From positions 11,950-35,949 of the forward strand of contig CAJBMK010000052.1 in NCBI GenBank assembly GCA_903954165.1: a stretch of DNA of 24,000 bases. Direction: 5' to 3'. This stretch comes from an uncultured bacterium (lineage in GTDB: Bacteria > Patescibacteriota > Minisyncoccia > Phycocordibacterales > CAJBMK01). Under the pieces are notes generated by a model. That model was not told the origin of the DNA. It saw only the letters and a program-made list of their open reading frames with translations, and did no database searches. Position numbers and translations under genes: made by a program. Below, piece by piece: positions 4,310 through 21,291 of this stretch; the stretch's first letter is position 1; every line of letters begins with the position of its first letter.

Positions 4310-4381
4310 CTCCTCGTCGTTCAATGGATAGGACGCAAGATTGCGGATCTTGCAATGTAGGTTCGATTCCTACCGAGGGGA
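4310..4381 (+). tRNA. tRNA-Arg (anticodon GCG), no encoded CCA
   Basis: Hand-folded cloverleaf. Acceptor ctcctcg/cgagggg (one U-G pair). D arm gttc-aatggata-ggac. Anticodon arm caaga-ttGCGga-tcttg. Variable region caat. T arm gtagg-ttcgatt-cctac. Discriminator a at 4381. Confidence 0.85.
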
Positions 4382-4549
4382 CAAAATACAAAAATGACTT
4401 CCATGATTGGAAGTCATTTTTGTATTTTGTCCCCTCGAGCAAGTGCCGGGTGGCACTTGCGGGTAGGAATCGAAGCCCGATTGAGCATTTTATTGAGCGT
4501 CTTCGCGAAAAGAAAATCCAATCGGGGTACTGAACCTGTAAGGTTCGAA
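4382..4549 (+). repeat. tRNA-3'-flank structured element, scaffold type 1, matched to tRNA-Arg(GCG) (copy A1)
   Basis: H1 is a perfect 27-bp hairpin, 4377-4403/4408-4434, extended by cga/tcg. H2 is gcaagtgcc/ggcacttgc at 4439-4447/4452-4460. gtaggaatcgaa (4463-4474) is the reverse complement of the tRNA T-loop and T-stem at 4362-4373. P3 is cccgattg/caatcggg at 4476-4483/4519-4526 and encloses a hairpin tipped gcg-tctt-cgc. The 3' module gtactgaacctgtaaggttcgaa lies at 4527-4549. Confidence 0.7.
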
Positions 4550-4714
4550 TCCCTCAGTGCCCACAACAAAAACGGCTATCGTGCTGTTTTTTTGCGGGCG
4601 CTAGCAAAGCGTCTGCACGCTATGCGCGAGGGATTCGAAAGGGTTCTCCGTTATATCTTAGAAATTCTTATTTCTAAGATATCGGAAACCCGTACTGAAC
4701 CTGTAAGGTTCGAA
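4550..4714 (+). repeat. tRNA-3'-flank structured element, scaffold type 2, matched to tRNA-Val, nested in the tRNA-Arg locus (copy A2)
   Basis: It starts with tccctcagtgcccaca, which is 15/16 identical to the tRNA-Val 3' end at 21041-21056. Anti-Val segments are gggcgct (4596-4602) and gagggattcgaa (4628-4639), split by H2 at 4604-4625. P3 is gggttctccg/cggaaaccc. P4 is the 13-bp hairpin at 4653-4682. It ends with a second copy of gtactgaacctgtaaggttcgaa (4692-4714). The decayed tRNA-Arg tail cttcctaccgac follows at 4715-4726. Confidence 0.7.
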
Positions 4715-4795
4715 CTTCCTACCGACATATTCGGTAATCAATAATGTTATTTTTTTCTCTTCCACCCCTCTGTCAAATTTGTTATTGTTCTCCGT

Positions 4796-11697: not shown

Positions 11698-11834
11698 GTG
11701 CGAATTTGTTACATAAACGTCTAATAAGAATCTAGGTTTATGAATTAGTTATATCAAAATTAGACTCTTTAAACAATCTAAAAAACAGTGGGGGGTTCGA
11801 ATTATATACAGAATGGATATCCGACAAATGTATA

Positions 11835-12016
11835 AGGTGCGCCGATTACATCAATAGGTACTTTTTGATTTTATTTTCGTCTGGGAAGACTCAATAAAAT
11901 AGCGAAAAGTCTTTCGAATCTCACGCGCAAGCAATGCGGGCGGATTGCTTGCTCTCATCCGCCTAAAAAATCAGCACGCGTGGAGTGTGTGATTTTTAAT
12001 AGCGGAGAATGTTGGT
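11835..12016 (-). repeat. tRNA-3'-flank structured element, scaffold type 2, Ser-matched, detached from any tRNA (copy S3)
   Basis: Read on the minus strand: attaaaaatcacacactccacgcgtgctgatttttt (H1), ggcggatgaga, H2 gcaagcaat/attgcttgc, gcgtgagattcgaa, P3 actttt/aaaagt, and P4 attttatt/aataaaat tipped gtct-tccc-agac. About 11912-12010 is a near copy of about 14233-14325. The 3' module is degenerate. Confidence 0.6.
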
Positions 12017-12068
12017 TTGGTGTTGAAGTTAGTCAAGAATTGTAAGGCCAATTTGTTTCTTACCTCAT

Positions 12069-14054
12069 TTATTTAAAAATATACTCTCCTTTAAATACTT
12101 CAAACTTCAAAACTTCCTTTTCTTGCATTTCGGTTTCTGCTATTTTTGTTAATTTTATTTTGTACTGTTTGCATATATCTTCTAATAAATCATAATTACC
12201 TAAATCGGTAGAAAATCCAATCAAAATTTCACCATTCTGTTTTAAGTATTTCTTACAATCCTTTAAATATTTTCTTATTGCACGATAACCGGCATCAAAA
12301 AATTGAGCGTCTTCCATTGTTATGTTTGTTCCCGGGTCCATAAAACCAAATGGCATAGCCCAAAAAATCACATCAAATTTTTCTGTTTCCGGTATACCGT
12401 CCAATACATCACCGCTCGTGGCCTTGATTCTATCTTCTACTCCAATTAGCTTTGCGTTGTATAAAGTATTCTCCGGGGCAAATGGATTTATGTCTGTTGC
12501 AAAAATCTCTAAGCCGCTATTTTCTTTTGCAAGATAACAAGAAATAATTCCTGACCCGCATCCAACTTCGCAGAAATATTTCTTATCTTTAATAAGGCCG
12601 TTTACAACTTCTGCATACCACGTTGTTGATGGGAAGTATGATGGATTAAAAACTGCGGGGTGCACAGAATATGTGCTACCAAGAATCGTTGCGTTTACCC
12701 AATCCTCCTTTTTGTTTTGATTTTGGAAGGTTCTTGTTTGTTCTATTCCTGCTTGTATTGGATCATCAAAACGAATTAACTGCGTTAGGTATGTTTTTAT
12801 TTTATCAGTATCAATATCGCCATTTGTTTTTAATTTTGTTTCTGCGTCAATGGAAAAATTAATCTTGAAATATCTTCGTAATTCAAAGTAGTTATTTAAA
12901 TCATCCGGTCCAAATCCCCCAAAAATTGCAATGTCGTTTAGGTCGTATGTTAATAAATTATTTATTTTGCTAATTAAATTTTCTTTGCTTTCCTGAATAC
13001 CTTTTCCTTTGCTATTGTCTAGTAATATAAATGCTTTATTGTCTTTAATTAACGTTCTAAAATTCTCGTCTTCGATTAAATGGATATTTTCATCATCAAG
13101 CGGAATATCCGCCAAAAAGTTCTCAGTAACATACTTTACGAAGCGTAAGTTATCTTCTGTATTAAAATCGTTTGTTTGTAAATACTTTACAAAAGGTAAC
13201 TCATTTTTAATTCTTTCTGTGTCTAGGATTTGATTGTTTGAATAGGTATATGAAAAATGTAAGATAGGAACGAATCCCTCATAAAATTCGCACACCTTAA
13301 AAATATCCTCTACATTTTTAAGTTTTTCTTTATTTTGAAAATCCCTTGAATCAAATTGTACCCCTATACAGATTTTTAATAGGGGATCTTTTTTCTTATT
13401 TTTCAAAAACTCGCCTATTTCTTCGACGGTTTGAGGTTTGTCTGCGTGGAACTGATAGAAATAATAGCTTACTTCTTGGCTGAAAAAATGTTTAAATTTA
13501 GATTTTTTTGTCTCGAAATATTTTTTATTTACATCATTTAATCCCACAATTAAAGACCTTCTTTCAACGATCTCAATTCCAGTCTTTGCAATTTCGGAAA
13601 CTTTCGACGGATTGTTTGTTAAAAGAATTATTTGATTTACACCGAGGTCATTTAAGGCGACTTTGACCATCTCATATGTTCTTTCATCCGGGTTGTGTCC
13701 AAGCATTACGTTTGCCTCAAACGTATCATAACCTTTTGCCTGTAGTTTGTACGCTTTTATTTTTTCATATAGTCCGATACCGCGACCTTCCTGTCTTAAA
13801 TAAATCACACATCCGTTTCCGTTTTTTTGTATTTCAATCAAGGCTGTCTCAAGCTGTTCTCCACAGTCACATTGTAGGCTTTGAAAAACATCTCCCGTCA
13901 TGCATTCACTATGAACTCTGGTTAAAATCGGCTCTTTTGGATTAAGATGCTCGGTATAAACCACAACGGTTTCTTTACCGTGATTTTCCGCATATACGCG
14001 AAAGTTAAATTTTCCTAATTTAGTATTTATAAGTGATTCTGAAAATTTCTTCAT
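12069..14054 (-). CDS. Three-domain fusion: GTP cyclohydrolase II (RibA) + TrpF/PRAI-like TIM-barrel domain + class I SAM-dependent methyltransferase
   Basis: 661-aa ORF. Residues ~1-195 align with RibA along their length: RVHSECMTGDVFQSLQCDCGEQL carries the zinc Cys triad, and RQEGRGIGLYEKIKAYKLQ, GYDTFEAN, DERTY and LLTNNPSKV also match. The middle domain has KICIG, ILLDNSKGKG, IAIFGGFGPDDL and FSIDAETKLKTNGDIDTDKIKTYL. These mirror the PRAI blocks KICG, LLD..GGSG, LSGGL.PENV and VDVSSGVE..G.KD..KI..F. The C-terminus has VGCGSG (motif I), ATDINP, and IFWAMPFG at the position of the NPPY-type motif IV. Confidence 0.8.
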   Translation of the reverse strand: MKKFSESLINTKLGKFNFRVYAENHGKETVVVYTEHLNPKEPILTRVHSECMTGDVFQSLQCDCGEQLETALIEIQKNGNGCVIYLRQEGRGIGLYEKIKAYKLQAKGYDTFEANVMLGHNPDERTYEMVKVALNDLGVNQIILLTNNPSKVSEIAKTGIEIVERRSLIVGLNDVNKKYFETKKSKFKHFFSQEVSYYFYQFHADKPQTVEEIGEFLKNKKKDPLLKICIGVQFDSRDFQNKEKLKNVEDIFKVCEFYEGFVPILHFSYTYSNNQILDTERIKNELPFVKYLQTNDFNTEDNLRFVKYVTENFLADIPLDDENIHLIEDENFRTLIKDNKAFILLDNSKGKGIQESKENLISKINNLLTYDLNDIAIFGGFGPDDLNNYFELRRYFKINFSIDAETKLKTNGDIDTDKIKTYLTQLIRFDDPIQAGIEQTRTFQNQNKKEDWVNATILGSTYSVHPAVFNPSYFPSTTWYAEVVNGLIKDKKYFCEVGCGSGIISCYLAKENSGLEIFATDINPFAPENTLYNAKLIGVEDRIKATSGDVLDGIPETEKFDVIFWAMPFGFMDPGTNITMEDAQFFDAGYRAIRKYLKDCKKYLKQNGEILIGFSTDLGNYDLLEDICKQYKIKLTKIAETEMQEKEVLKFEVFKGEYIFK

Positions 14055-14127
14055 AGAAAATATTATACTATAAATTTATATAACAAGCCTAAAATAGGTA
14101 TAGAATCCTATTTTATAACAGGGTTAA

Positions 14128-14316
14128 TGGTGGAGGAGGTGAGACCGCGAGTACGCTTTTCGAAGCTTACAGCTTCAGTACAGGTTTCCCATTTTTTCAC
14201 GATAGGAATCGCTCAAAAATAGGGGAGAACCTTTTCGAATCTCACGCGCAAGCGAAGCAGTTCGCTTGCTCTCCTCCGTCTAAAAAATCAGCACGCGTAG
14301 GGTGTGCGATTTTAAT
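14128..14316 (-). repeat. tRNA-3'-flank structured element, scaffold type 2, Ser-matched (copy S2)
   Basis: Read on the minus strand: H1 aaaatcgcac...gtgctgatttt, gacggaggaga, H2 gcaagcgaa-ctgc-ttcgcttgc, gcgtgagattcgaa, P3 aaggttctcccc/gggaaacct, P4 attttt/aaaaat, and the module gtactgaagctgtaagcttcgaa. A 14-nt insert follows, then the tail tctcacctcctccacca (plus strand 14128-14144). Confidence 0.7.
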
Positions 14317-14500
14317 TGCGGAGGAGGTGAGACCGCGAGTACGCTTTTCGAACGTTACACGTTCAGTACCCCGATTGGATTTTCTCTGCGTTGGGAAACT
14401 TGAGAAAATGCTCAATCAGGCTTCGAATCTCACCCGGAAGTGCTCCCAGCACTTCCTCTCCTCGCGCCAAATCAAAACCGCCCTGAAAGGCGGTTGGATT
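14317..14500 (-). repeat. tRNA-3'-flank structured element, scaffold type 1, Ser-matched (copy S1)
   Basis: Read on the minus strand directly after the tRNA-Ser CCA: H1 aaccgcc-tttcag-ggcggtt (plus 14476-14495), flanked by ccaaatc/gatttgg. Then ggcgcgaggaga, H2 ggaagtgct/agcacttcc (plus 14436-14456), gggtgagattcgaa, P3 cctgattg/caatcggg, and P4 attttctc/gagaaaat tipped gtt-tccc-aac. The module is gtactgaacgtgtaacgttcgaa. A 14-nt insert follows, then the tail tctcacctcctccgca (plus 14317-14332). Confidence 0.7.
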
Positions 14501-14590
14501 TGGCGGAGGAGGTGAGATTCGAACTCACGACACCTGTAAAGGTGTGACGGTTTTCAAGACCGTTGCTTTAGACCGCTCAGCCACTCCTCC
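14501..14590 (-). tRNA. tRNA-Ser (anticodon UGA), class II with long variable arm, CCA encoded
   Basis: The reverse complement reads ggaggagtggctgagcggtctaaagcaacggtcttgaaaaccgtcacacctttacaggtgtcgtgagttcgaatctcacctcctccgcca. Acceptor ggaggag/ctcctcc. Anticodon arm acggt-ctTGAaa-accgt. Variable arm cacc-tttaca-ggtg. T arm gtgag-ttcgaat-ctcac. Confidence 0.9.
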
Positions 14591-14690
14591 GTGATGTTGG
14601 TGACCGAACAGATGTTGGTCACGTAAGCGAAATAATAGCAGAAAAGGGGAGAAAAACAAGCGGGGCGGGTATTTATGCTATACTCTTTGT

Positions 14691-19038: not shown

Positions 19039-19110
19039 GCCCTCATAGCTCAACGGATAGAGCAGCGCTCTTCTAAGGCGTTGATGTAGGTTCGATTCCT
19101 GCTGGGGGCA
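19039..19110 (+). tRNA. tRNA-Arg (anticodon UCU), no encoded CCA
   Basis: Acceptor gccctca/tgggggc. D arm gctc-aacggata-gagc. Anticodon arm gcgct-ctTCTaa-ggcgt. Variable region tgat. T arm gtagg-ttcgatt-cctgc. Discriminator a at 19110. Confidence 0.9.
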
Positions 19111-19280
19111 CAATTAAAAAACCGACGATAAGTCGGTTTTTTAATTGTGCCCCCAGAGAAAGCGCCTGATGGCGCTTTCGCCAGGAATCGAAGCCCGATT
19201 GAGCTTCGTTTTGAGTGTCTTCACGAAAAAACGAACCAATCGGGGTACTGACCGAGTAACGGTCGAACTTCCTGTTGGGT
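19111..19280 (+). repeat. tRNA-3'-flank structured element, scaffold type 1, matched to tRNA-Arg(UCU) (copy B, cleanest prototype)
   Basis: H1 is a perfect 25-bp hairpin at 19102-19126/19132-19156. H2 is gaaagcgcc/ggcgctttc at 19158-19166/19171-19179. caggaatcgaa (19182-19192) is the reverse complement of 19091-19101. P3 is at 19194-19201/19237-19244. P4 is at 19205-19212/19228-19235, tipped gtg-tctt-cac. The module is gtactgaccgagtaacggtcgaa. The decayed tail tcgaacttcctgttgggt lies at 19263-19280. Confidence 0.7.
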
Positions 19281-19446
19281 ATTTTTATATATAAAAACCA
19301 AATAAACAGTAGGTCTCATTGTTTGACAGTTATTAATATAAGTCATAATATAAAAAAATGATATTTGAGTTGCAAAACCTTACTCATCACAACGCCAACC
19401 TCTTCAAGGGCTGGTGTTTGTAATTATTTCTATTTCTTTTGATTAC

Positions 19447-20980: not shown

Positions 20981-21054
20981 GGGCGCTTAGCTCAGTTGGT
21001 TAGAGCATCTCATTTACACTGAGAGGGTCGGGGGTTCGAATCCCTCAGCGCCCA
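20981..21054 (+). tRNA. tRNA-Val (anticodon UAC), no encoded CCA
   Basis: Acceptor gggcgct/agcgccc. D arm gctc-agttggtta-gagc. Anticodon arm tctca-ttTACac-tgaga. Variable region gggtc. T arm ggggg-ttcgaat-ccctc. Discriminator a at 21054. Confidence 0.9.
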
Positions 21055-21217
21055 CAATAAAAACGGCTATCGTGCCGTTTTTTTGCGGGCGCTAGCAAAG
21101 TGTCTGCACACTTTGCGCGAGGGATTCGAAAGGGTTCTCCGTTATATTTTGGAAATTCCCATTTCCAAAATATCGGAAACCCCTACTGCCGCTGTAAGCG
21201 GAGAATCATTTGTCGGC
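21055..21217 (+). repeat. tRNA-3'-flank structured element, scaffold type 2, matched to tRNA-Val (copy C)
   Basis: H1 is aaaaacggc-tatcgt-gccgttttt (21059-21082). gggcgct (21087-21093) is the reverse complement of the acceptor 3' strand at 21047-21053. H2 is gcaaagtgt-ctgc-acactttgc (21095-21116). gagggattcgaa (21119-21130) is the reverse complement of 21035-21046. P3 is gggttctccg/cggaaaccc. P4 is the 13-bp hairpin at 21144-21173. The module is ctactgccgctgtaagcggagaa. A strongly decayed tail follows. Confidence 0.7.
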
Positions 21218-21254
21218 ATTATTTTCCAGTCCTTTCAAGGACGTCGAAAATATC

Positions 21255-21291
21255 AATTTTGTTGTAATTTTGTTGTAATTTTGTTGTAATT
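21255..21291. repeat. Tandem repeat, 11-nt unit aattttgttgt x 3.4
   Basis: Perfect copies at 21255-21265, 21266-21276 and 21277-21287, plus a partial aatt. Confidence 0.8.

Follow-up and report, generated by a model that had tools for sequence, protein, structure and literature searches.

Two related elements follow the tRNA-Ser(UGA) gene

The stretch of DNA considered here, termed the window, spans 24,000 nucleotides (nt) of a contig from an uncultured member of the Patescibacteriota (CAJBMK010000052.1, positions 11,950 to 35,949 of the forward strand; assembly GCA_903954165.1). On its minus strand, the gene encoding transfer RNA (tRNA)-Ser(UGA) is followed by a terminator-like hairpin, an element termed S1 (14316-14470), a hairpin with a T-run and a second element, termed S2 (14128-14315). 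Both belong to a family of units of some 150-190 nt found directly behind tRNA genes and on the tRNA strand. From 5' to 3', a unit comprises a linker, an anti-acceptor arm, spacer A, hairpin H2, a 2-nt spacer, an anti-T arm and A-TTCGAA (box 1), followed by helices P1 and P2, the junction GUACU, helix P3 with the loop UGUAA, GAA (box 2), a junction insert and a tail made up of U60, the T-stem 3' strand, the acceptor 3' strand and the discriminator. H2 thus divides the antisense head of the unit, doing so exactly where the T-stem meets the acceptor stem. At the tRNA-Ser locus, these parts are arranged as follows, with the basis for each assignment given in brackets where one was recorded.

14501-14590, minus strand: tRNA-Ser(UGA), with CCA encoded at 14501-14503 (ARAGORN; Rfam tRNA model, 62 bits)
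14471-14500, minus strand: S1 linker, a terminator-like hairpin with its stem at 14476-14495, then TTGATTT (terminator-like site; sequence)
14458-14470, minus strand: S1 head, anti-acceptor arm TTGGCG-C-GAGGAG, with a bulged C at 14464 (sequence)
14436-14456, minus strand: S1 hairpin H2, GGAAGTGC-TGGGA-GCACTTCC (folding; loop class against scaffold subtype)
14422-14433, minus strand: S1 anti-T arm GTGAG, then A and box 1, TTCGAA (sequence)
14370-14421, minus strand: S1 core helices P1 and P2, type-1 scaffold, GCCTGATTGAG...CCAATCGGG (model R1; covariation)
14347-14369, minus strand: S1 junction GTACT, P3 (GAACG-TGTAA-CGTTC) and GAA, box 2 (the inner three P3 pairs covary)
14333-14346, minus strand: S1 optional mini-hairpin P4, AAGCGTACTCGCGG, previously described as a 14-nt insert
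14316-14332, minus strand: S1 tail, TCTCAC-CTCCTCC-G-CAA (13/13 match to the tRNA)
14281-14315, minus strand: S2 linker, an imperfect hairpin, then a T-run
14271-14280, minus strand: S2 head, anti-acceptor arm GAC-GGAGGAG
14248-14269, minus strand: S2 hairpin H2, GCAAGCGAA-CTGC-TTCGCTTGC (CUGC loop class, typical of type-2 scaffolds)
14234-14245, minus strand: S2 anti-T arm GTGAG, then A and box 1, TTCGAA (sequence)
14182-14233, minus strand: S2 core helices P1 and P2, type-2 scaffold, AAGGTTCTCCCC...GGGAAACCT (model R1)
14159-14181, minus strand: S2 junction GTACT, P3 (GAAGC-TGTAA-GCTTC) and GAA, box 2
14145-14158, minus strand: S2 mini-hairpin P4, of the same sequence as that of S1
14128-14144, minus strand: S2 tail, TCTCAC-CTCCTCC-A-CCA, with ACCA unpaired in the predicted fold

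On the minus strand, the 3' part of the tRNA-Ser gene, the upstream partner of S1, reads ...GTGAG-TTCGAAT-CTCAC-CTCCTCC-G-CCA. The anti-acceptor arm of S1 is antisense to CTCCTCC-G-CCAA, while its anti-T arm and box 1 are antisense to the T-loop and T-stem 3' strand; the S1 linker forms the centre of a palindrome, H1. The S1 tail is a copy of the T-stem 3' strand, acceptor 3' strand and discriminator of the tRNA, and is at the same time the upstream partner of the S2 head. The H2 loop of S1 is of the UGGGA class, typical of type-1 and type-3 scaffolds. Despite their different scaffold types, S1 and S2 share a 3' block of 58 nt (P3, P4, the tail and five further nt) that is 90% identical.

An earlier reading of the window, made from sequence alone, had claimed that both elements end in nearly intact copies of the tRNA-Ser 3' end. 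Indeed, GGAGGAGGTGAGA recurs exactly at 14132, 14320 and 14505 (0.02 matches expected; three matches seen in 0/100 shuffles). Likewise, the 14-nt insert said to be common to both elements was found, together with TTCGAA, as CCGCGAGTACGCTTTTCGAA at 14145 and 14333 (chance expectation 0.00). The distal copy does end in CCA, as had been stated, with the minus-strand end of S2 reading CTCCTCC-A-CCA (14128-14138) as compared to CTCCTCC-G-CAA in S1. Three further observations of that reading were borne out, namely, the dinucleotide swapped on both arms of the 3'-module stem (GAACG/CGTTC in S1, GAAGC/GCTTC in S2), the heads being antisense to the tails (GGAGGAG and GTGAG in S2; the same in S1, plus the one bulged C at 14464), and the decay of the tails at the Arg and Val loci of the window. 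The division into type-1 and type-2 elements, on the other hand, stands only insofar as these are real subfamilies; they are not separate kinds of element, since the covarying scaffolds form a continuum. A single bulged nucleotide between the bases pairing with C72 and C71 is a recurring trait of Ser-type heads (14458-14470 in the window; also L005, L024 and L100 among the loci introduced below).

The units share a covarying core

A covariance model (R1) and the corresponding alignment (A1) were built from 121 units. The core, of some 80 nt, consists of three covarying helices, P1, P2 and P3, connected by joining nucleotides that are nearly invariant. Pairing was seen in 93.6% of core cells, as compared to 65.1% in shuffles (0/500 of which reached the observed value, although the sequences in A1 are mutually related, such that the shuffle statistics overstate independence) and 31-50% in slid controls. 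The core includes 590 double-change cells, with every P1 and P2 pair showing some, and compensatory changes were found at 18/21 core pairs. Even so, covariation is convincingly supported by the slid controls and by double changes at each pair of P1 and P2. Within P1 and P2, G.U combinations outnumber those of A.C (56 vs 20, with two register-shifted columns left out), and the basal U.G of P3 is found in 121/121 sequences. Where the neighbouring tRNA presents a TTCAAGT T-loop, both boxes follow (ACTTGAA and TTCAA) and the basal U.G of P3 becomes U:A.

In keeping with a conserved core, that of S2 is 85-87% identical to cores from other genomes, as compared to ~67% for neighbouring coding DNA. 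When identity between orthologues was considered part by part, the following values were obtained:

Box 1: 0.99
Junction and P3: 0.91
Anti-T arm: 0.86
Tail, T-stem strand: 0.81
P1 and P2: 0.77
Anti-acceptor arm: 0.67
Tail, acceptor strand: 0.67
Linker: 0.65
H2: 0.61, with compensatory changes present
Flanks: 0.55-0.58

H2 is mostly of 8-9 base pairs, with UGGGA and CUGC as recurrent loops. The class of this loop tracks the scaffold subtype, despite the tRNA-specific arms that lie in between. Specifically, the UGGGA loop was found in 22/71 type-1 and type-3 units and in 0/41 type-2 and type-4 units, while the CUGC loop was found in 4/71 and 13/41, respectively. The junction insert comprises 0 nt, 2 nt or the 14-nt P4, with the latter being present in 17/125 units and including compensatory variants, such as CATG-TACT-CATG and GTG-TACT-CAC.

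An alternative linker that lacks the terminator hairpin and instead presents a loop with the conserved motif GAACG(C/T)AGTGA lies between the tRNA end and the anti-acceptor arm in ten loci (L021, L028, L062, L086, L099, L110, L114, L115, L031 and L077).

The arms follow the neighbouring tRNA

The relation of the arms to the tRNA was addressed in 80 tRNA-adjacent units, with mismatches being counted on tRNA-anchored positions; crude pairing counts that allowed for G.U pairs and many offsets were dropped for excessive noise. The head is the Watson-Crick antisense of the 3' strand of the neighbouring tRNA, spanning T54 to the discriminator and in many cases reaching the trailer. The tail repeats the tRNA sequence from the T-loop onward. 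In five loci (L023, L049, L071, L078 and L114), this direct repeat extends into the tRNA trailer. The tail is identical to the tRNA at 13/13 positions in 34/80 units and presents no more than two mismatches in 44/80, as compared to 10/398 controls involving the tRNAs of other loci. With no more than one mismatch allowed, 71/80 units retain the T-stem part of the tail, while the acceptor part is intact in 39/80 and decayed in 31/80. According to tRNA type, intact tails were found in 23/36 Ser units and 5/9 Tyr units. In the head, the anti-acceptor arm is intact in 55/80 units when one bulge is allowed, as compared to 23% in controls.

Both acceptor strands are intact in only 25/80 units, with no positive association between the two strands, and units with decayed tails present 1.0 broken core pairs, as compared to 1.6 in the others. 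Closure of the acceptor type is not, as such, the conserved feature of the family; only closure via the T-stem is kept.

Positions at which tRNA strands or tail and tRNA disagree reveal what the head is a copy of. Where the tRNA itself contains a G.U pair or a mismatch, the head complements the tRNA 3' strand in Watson-Crick fashion at 24/26 positions and equals the tRNA 5' strand at 1/26. The G3:U70 determinant recognized by alanyl-tRNA synthetase thus becomes A:U, with A lying opposite U70 in the head of both tRNA-Ala loci. Where the T-stem strand of the tail differs from the tRNA, the head is Watson-Crick complementary to the tRNA at 21/26 positions and mismatched to the tail at 14. Together, the G.U test and the tracking of the tRNA by the head argue that the head is a true antisense copy of the 3' strand of the upstream tRNA. 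The possibility that the head is instead a degenerate tRNA 5' half that arose upon gene duplication was ruled out by the same G.U test.

CCA follows 7/44 good tails, as compared to 20/152 tRNA genes of these genomes. As this rate equals that of tRNA genes in general, CCA behind a tail was rejected as a trace of copying from mature tRNA or of selection. Across L001-L119 and the window, the discriminator is followed by CA in 106/152 tRNA genes and by the full CCA in only 20/152, with or without an element. The discriminator position of S2 is A73, as compared to G73 in tRNA-Ser.

The family is widespread in Patescibacteria

To seek additional units, the pattern TCGAA-N40-70-GTACTGA-N4-GTAA-N4-CGAA, assembled from motifs common to the units of the window, was employed. 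This pattern has five matches in the window and none in shuffles. A scan of GTDB, with one genome per species, revealed at least 119 loci (L001-L119). Among the matches listed, three (L054, L073 and L089) are chance-like, leaving at least 116 further genuine loci outside the window, and nearly all hosts are Patescibacteria metagenome-assembled genomes (MAGs), including Taylor-, Lloyd-, Kaiser-, Nomura- and Zambryskiibacteria, Paceibacteria and the like, with names used as deposited with the genomes. As the pattern demands TCGAA boxes, the list of tRNA types is skewed toward those with TTCGAA T-loops and the motifs described as invariant are in part a product of the search. Model R1 yielded 154 matches in the fetched loci and seven in the window, i.e., 161 units. 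Of these, 98 lie no more than 130 nt behind a tRNA gene on the same strand and another 15 lie behind a further unit (113/161 together). Some seemingly orphan units actually follow intron-containing tRNAs. Although 97/169 tRNAs were found to be occupied, this is an overestimate, the loci having been chosen for containing a unit; when tRNAs that do not adjoin a pattern match were considered, about 17/89 had a unit.

No match to the pattern was found in 2.9 million viral contigs, nor did S1 and S2 have a match in phage and plasmid collections. When the window was scanned with Rfam 15 at gathering thresholds, only its four tRNAs were detected, and a scan of 14050-14620 at E ≤ 10 returned only matches overlapping the tRNA and its hairpin. 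A full-text literature search did not find a description of a family of tRNA-matched units. As such, the family is widespread in Patescibacteria and apparently undescribed so far.

Several observations concern individual loci. L072 and L077, labelled as a Patiriisocius (Flavobacteriaceae) MAG and a Nostocoides (actinobacterial) MAG, respectively, contain typical units and are probably mis-binned Patescibacteria contigs. L072 holds six Tyr-derived units that are scattered between open reading frames (ORFs), with no tRNA nearby. In five loci, including L063, a unit adjoins a gene encoding a 509-residue protein of the CCA-adding enzyme/poly(A) polymerase family, an arrangement that may be mere conserved gene order near tRNA genes. 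Group I introns were detected at L046 2539-2777 and L007 6967-7192, both on the minus strand (76 and 80 bits, respectively); ARAGORN missed the tRNA in front of the L046 unit because it is interrupted by that intron. Finally, several orphan units (L035 at ~1640-1830, L036, L077, L053 and L043) are preceded by another conserved region of ~150 nt, with the motif ...AATCAGCCGA-[long hairpin]-TCGTCCGCAT...TCGTCGGGATT...AAAAAGGTTCGAA-N16-CCGCA. ARAGORN and Rfam made no call in this region, which may correspond to a divergent or deleted form of the family or to a separate RNA.

Predicted folding of S1 and S2

The sequence-only reading had proposed that each unit could close into a minihelix resembling an acceptor/T-stem stack. 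The topology is as had been described, with the anti-acceptor arm, H2, the anti-T arm and a scaffold in place of the T-loop being followed by the T-stem and acceptor 3' strand. When folded alone, S1 is predicted to adopt the closed form (-66.0 kcal/mol; z = -5.1), with its 3' end paired, as is S2 (-64.5 kcal/mol; z = -5.9), with its ACCA being free.

Folding together with the tRNA upheld closure for the isolated units but not for the precursor. In the lowest-energy fold of tRNA-Ser and S1, at -130.9 kcal/mol as compared to -119.6 kcal/mol for native tRNA with closed S1, domains are swapped, such that the head pairs with the T-loop, T-stem 3' strand, acceptor 3' strand and trailer of the tRNA, while the tail pairs with the tRNA 5' strands. 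The outcome by which the proposal was to fall, i.e., a closing helix less favourable than pairing with the upstream tRNA, was thus encountered part of the way, amounting to ~11 kcal/mol in the tRNA-Ser and S1 precursor. When tRNA, S1 and S2 were folded together, each anti-acceptor arm paired with the preceding acceptor copy and the anti-T arm of S1 paired with its own tail. According to these models, closure is real for the freed unit, while upstream pairing prevails in the precursor unless folding or processing is co-transcriptional. The acceptor/T minihelix is predicted for S1 and S2, while across the family the two acceptor strands it calls for are both intact in only 25/80 units.

Neither ARAGORN nor the Rfam tRNA model called a tRNA in S1 or S2, and ARAGORN called no transfer-messenger RNA (tmRNA) in the window. 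The core was also considered as an intron or insertion in the T-loop of a real tRNA, an idea discarded when in silico removal of the core from 161 units yielded no tRNA spanning the junction. A hammerhead-like reading of GUACUGA...GAA was rejected upon inspection by eye, as the bases after CUGA covary as a stem and do not correspond to the hammerhead NGA. Rfam detected no self-cleaving ribozyme (hammerhead, twister, pistol or hatchet) in 14050-14620.

Other units in the window

Model R1 finds seven copies in the window, with each of the four tRNAs having at least one. In addition to S1 and S2, these are found at the Arg(GCG), Arg(TCT) and Val(TAC) loci and in a decayed form beyond S2.

4383-4549, plus strand: type-1 unit after tRNA-Arg(GCG) (tRNA at 4310-4382), with a perfect 30-nt H1 palindrome (inverted repeat I3; R1)
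4461-4573, plus strand: R1 match, 98.4 bits
4550-4727, plus strand: nested type-2 unit, comprising a tRNA-Val 3' end and anti-Val head (4550-4714) and an Arg-like tail (4715-4727)
4626-4738, plus strand: R1 match to the nested Val-derived unit, 87.7 bits
11800-12020, minus strand: decayed third S2-like unit, with a remnant Ser-like tail, linker, head and degraded core (repeats D4, D8 and D9)
11814-11926, minus strand: R1 match to the decayed unit, 28.7 bits
14135-14247, minus strand: R1 match to S2, 81.6 bits
14323-14435, minus strand: R1 match to S1, 90.6 bits
19112-19281, plus strand: type-1 unit after tRNA-Arg(TCT) (tRNA at 19039-19111), tail decayed (inverted repeat I4; R1)
19179-19291, plus strand: R1 match, 85.6 bits
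21056-21229, plus strand: type-2 unit after tRNA-Val(TAC) (tRNA at 20981-21055), tail decayed, P3 of a second class (GCCGC/GCGGA-GAA)
21117-21229, plus strand: R1 match to the Val unit, 60.8 bits

At the Arg(GCG) locus, an inserted block begins right after the P3-TTCGAA of the type-1 unit and ends right before the Arg-like tail. It contains the 3' end of a tRNA-Val, a terminator, a head antisense to tRNA-Val and a core of type 2. This block is 90% identical to the Val locus (repeat D1) and is bounded by identical 23-nt copies of P3. Within one genome, copies are only ~81% identical to one another.

In the second class of P3, CTG-CNNC-TGTAA-GNNG-AGA replaces CTGA-NNN-TGTAA-NNN-TCGA (window 21180-21205; L031, L081, L105 and L068). 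Because this class recurs in other loci, the P3 of the Val unit is a variant and not a decayed copy. Just 3' of the same unit, at 21247-21290 of the plus strand, lie three tandem copies of the 11-nt unit ATTTTGTTGTA. The decayed unit at 11800-12020 lies downstream of an ORF of 661 residues (12069-14054, minus strand) in which GTP cyclohydrolase II (E = 8e-55) is fused to an S-adenosylmethionine-dependent methyltransferase domain. The G+C content of this ORF is ~33%, as compared to ~44% for the rest of the window. As it is located between S2 and the decayed S2-like unit, the ORF may have been inserted into the array.

Trailer RNAs, DNA repeats and other possible explanations

The explanation given most weight, albeit tentatively, is that the units are a family of RNAs transcribed by read-through into tRNA trailers and multiplying by recombination at T-loop boxes (GGTTCGAA). 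Transcription that starts at the tRNA promoter and runs past the terminator-like linker would yield the element as RNA. The anti-T arm would pair with the T-stem strand of the tail, closing a three-way junction (stem T, P1-P2 and P3), and the anti-acceptor arm would pair with the upstream acceptor 3' strand, be it that of the tRNA or of the tail of a preceding unit, chaining tandems such as S1 and S2. In a freed unit, the anti-acceptor arm would pair with the unit's own tail to form a minihelix with a free ACCA, as predicted for S2, and this could be trimmed by tRNA-processing enzymes. At the DNA level, copies would multiply and be reshuffled through duplication and recombination at the T-loop boxes; the nested Val block, the 3' block shared by S1 and S2 and the repeats extending into trailers argue for such reshuffling. 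Also in favour of this explanation are the covarying and conserved core, the position behind tRNA genes of the same strand, the G.U excess in P1 and P2, the arms matched to the local tRNA, the predicted closed folds and tandem chaining, and the lack of transposase or integrase genes near units. It can be guessed that the core is a protein-binding or RNA-processing module riding on tRNA transcription units.

Several observations weigh against such an RNA. H2 looks like a DNA palindrome, with 1079 Watson-Crick pairs (98%), 10 G.U and 12 A.C showing no G.U bias, and H1 palindromes are perfect over as many as 30 nt, as is expected of palindromes at the DNA level. A terminator-like hairpin with a T-run lies between the tRNA and the head in 81/157 units, as compared to a background of 10%, and many units would therefore perhaps be reached only by read-through; a terminator follows the last tail in only 32/142 cases, with the random background again being 10%. 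The minimum-energy fold of tRNA-Ser with S1 unfolds the tRNA, which would be harmful unless processing is co-transcriptional. Lastly, decayed, chimeric and dispersed copies exist, such as that matched at 11814-11926 and the six in L072.

These same features could be explained were the units selfish or neutral DNA repeats, akin to repetitive extragenic palindromes (REPs), REP doublets forming hairpins (REPINs) or miniature inverted-repeat transposable elements (MITEs), that arise at the 3' ends of tRNAs and spread either through recombination or through an enzyme supplied in trans and working on single-stranded DNA, with the hairpins serving as DNA recognition structures. This explanation is the foremost alternative, although more likely wrong than right. 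Beyond the near-perfect Watson-Crick H1 and H2 palindromes, the terminator before half of the units and the decayed, chimeric, tandem and dispersed copies, it can draw on the fact that duplication blocks end at T-loop boxes and that the acceptor parts of tails decay like neutral sequence. At the same time, a DNA repeat would not account for the strand-asymmetric excess of G.U in P1 and P2 or for the invariant basal U.G of P3. Moreover, the type-1 scaffold was found behind 14 different tRNA anticodon types, with arms always matched to the local tRNA. As arms to at least 14 tRNAs have been re-matched on the same scaffold, simple copy-and-paste is insufficient. Nor was there a recent burst of copying, given how copies within one genome are ~81% identical, as compared to 85-87% across genomes within a subtype.

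An enzyme that would copy such repeats was sought as well. Clustering of 565 ORFs found within 2.5 kb of 125 units revealed no recurrent transposase, nuclease or integrase; the ORF clusters near units instead reflect housekeeping synteny (FtsA/PilM, RuvX, a ComF-like protein, HtpX, the CCA-adding enzyme, DedA and IF-2). Pfam detected no transposase, nuclease or integrase among 20 ORFs of the window. Empty-site orthologous alleles were not found in a metagenome scan with the variable arm of this tRNA-Ser. Two other mobile origins were eliminated, namely, integron-like cassette arrays, because the ORFs between the L072 units are mostly on the opposite strand, and a phage or plasmid origin, there being no match in those collections.

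The re-matched arms could also be taken to mean that units are natural programmable RNAs, in which a conserved scaffold (H2 and the three-way junction) would present the antisense and sense arms. [quoted passage not shown] They would do so either in tRNA-specific processing, repair or quality control or in RNA-guided insertion at TTCGAA. Taken together, this has a slim chance of being correct but, if so, would represent a new class of RNA-guided system in Patescibacteria. In its narrower form, held to be slightly less probable still, the scaffold presents the two-part antisense arm and the sense copy so as to direct a trans-acting protein to the tRNA or its gene for modification, cleavage, repair or T-loop recombination. 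The mosaic build of the unit, with a constant scaffold and H2 and arms matching at least 14 tRNAs, is what would be expected of such a guide. In addition, the antisense arms flank a hairpin with the topology of H/ACA guides or of an external guide sequence (EGS) for RNase P, the same 15-20 nt, being present in antisense and in sense, could form pairs with both strands of the DNA, and the Arg locus contains a unit inserted exactly at TTCGAA. Yet, no partner protein was seen among the clustered ORFs near units, head and tail would mask one another, and the target presents no unpaired nucleotides at the junction, unlike the H/ACA pocket. The target, furthermore, is the adjacent tRNA in cis, such that proximity alone could give rise to the matching.

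That the units are tRNA mimics, with an acceptor/T minihelix cut by RNase P and RNase Z, extended with CCA and perhaps aminoacylated, has an equally slim chance of holding for the family. RNase P and the CCA-adding enzyme act on minihelices, as does, weakly, seryl-tRNA synthetase of Escherichia coli. In the models considered here, this explanation fits S2 well, since isolated S1 and S2 close and the ACCA of S2 is free, and it is in line with the perfect tRNA 3' copies among the tails and their frequency in Ser and Tyr units. Across the family the fit is weak. The two acceptor strands are rarely intact together and show no association, cores are intact where tails have decayed, and the head follows the tRNA rather than the tail. 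G.U identity pairs, including G3:U70 of tRNA-Ala, become Watson-Crick pairs, and heads often also pair with the discriminator and trailer. Finally, CCA follows tails at the genomic background rate, and A73 in S2 contrasts with G73 in the tRNA.

Least probable of all, and unlikely despite the direct repeats that start in the T-loop and continue to the tRNA 3' end or, at times, past it, is that the units are scars of integrase insertion into the tRNA T-loop, with the tRNA 3' end and the tail as attL and attR, since no integrase lies in the window or near units, the element measures only ~170 nt with no ORF, its covarying core is conserved across many lineages, the antisense head and H2 are left unexplained, and phage, plasmid and viral collections gave no match.

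Patescibacteria have genomes of ~1 Mb, with little spare DNA. In the window, however, every tRNA has one or two elements of 150-190 nt, with a core that surpasses neighbouring coding DNA in cross-species conservation. Should the units be RNAs, they would add to a major lineage, of which little is understood, a large and new class of non-coding RNA with a link to tRNA biogenesis. Should they be DNA elements, they would be repeats of a new kind, with arms tailored to every tRNA gene. That one scaffold is found with arms for at least 14 tRNAs points to an undescribed re-matching mechanism or selective pressure. Model R1, moreover, offers a tool for annotating ~1% of otherwise unexplained intergenic DNA in these genomes.

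Comparison with known systems

Of the systems to which the units can be compared, an intrinsic terminator, defined by a G+C-rich hairpin and T-run, accounts for the linker only and not for the head, core and tail. In T-loop-type attachment (att) sites in tRNA genes, the insert lies between direct repeats that stretch from the T-loop to the 3' end, and the tRNA is left intact. The units likewise present flanking direct repeats and an intact tRNA but differ in that the insert is of 170 nt, lacks an integrase and contains an RNA-like conserved core together with an inverted copy of the tRNA 3' half. As in the ends of IS200/IS605 elements and the omega RNA (reRNA) of TnpB, a structured scaffold precedes a 3' segment that is specific to the locus, with a fixed TTCGAA at the left flank and right end and hairpins near the ends. 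By contrast, no tnpA or tnpB was found near units, the left part is tRNA-specific, copies are ~81% identical within a genome, the head would mask the supposed guide and Rfam gave no match.

H/ACA guides and EGSs also place two antisense segments around a hairpin, recognize one continuous target and create a three-way junction at the acceptor/T-stem boundary. H/ACA ribonucleoproteins are not known in bacteria. The units differ in having no unpaired target nucleotides, ACA box or lower closing stem, and in having their target in cis. With the tRNA-like domain of tmRNA and the Y-RNA-like YrlA RNA, the units share ends that can pair as an acceptor/T-stem stack and a large insertion elsewhere. Still, ARAGORN and Rfam detect neither RNA here, the insertion replaces the T-loop, and members of the family do not share a conserved acceptor helix.

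Like REPs, bacterial interspersed mosaic elements (BIMEs), REPINs and MITEs, the units are short, multi-copy, palindrome-rich and extragenic, occur as tandem and decayed copies and may include terminators. Unlike these, their arms are specific to the adjacent tRNA and their core forms a three-way junction that is asymmetric and contains conserved unpaired nucleotides. Moreover, no REP-associated transposase (RAYT) or other transposase was found near units.

Non-coding RNAs borne by tRNA transcripts offer the final comparison. 3'ETS-leuZ of E. coli is a tRNA trailer RNA. In plant dicistronic tRNA-snoRNA genes, cleavage by RNase Z releases the small nucleolar RNA (snoRNA), according to work cited in PMC12045711, while mascRNA is released from MALAT1 by tRNA-processing enzymes (PMC8457004). 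The units stand apart in carrying both antisense and sense copies of the 3' half of their neighbour, and in being multi-copy, tandem and often positioned behind a terminator-like hairpin. As in these systems, however, the unit lies directly downstream of a tRNA and on the same strand, and S2 can form a tRNA-like end. Having no promoter of its own, such a unit would depend on the transcription and processing of the tRNA.

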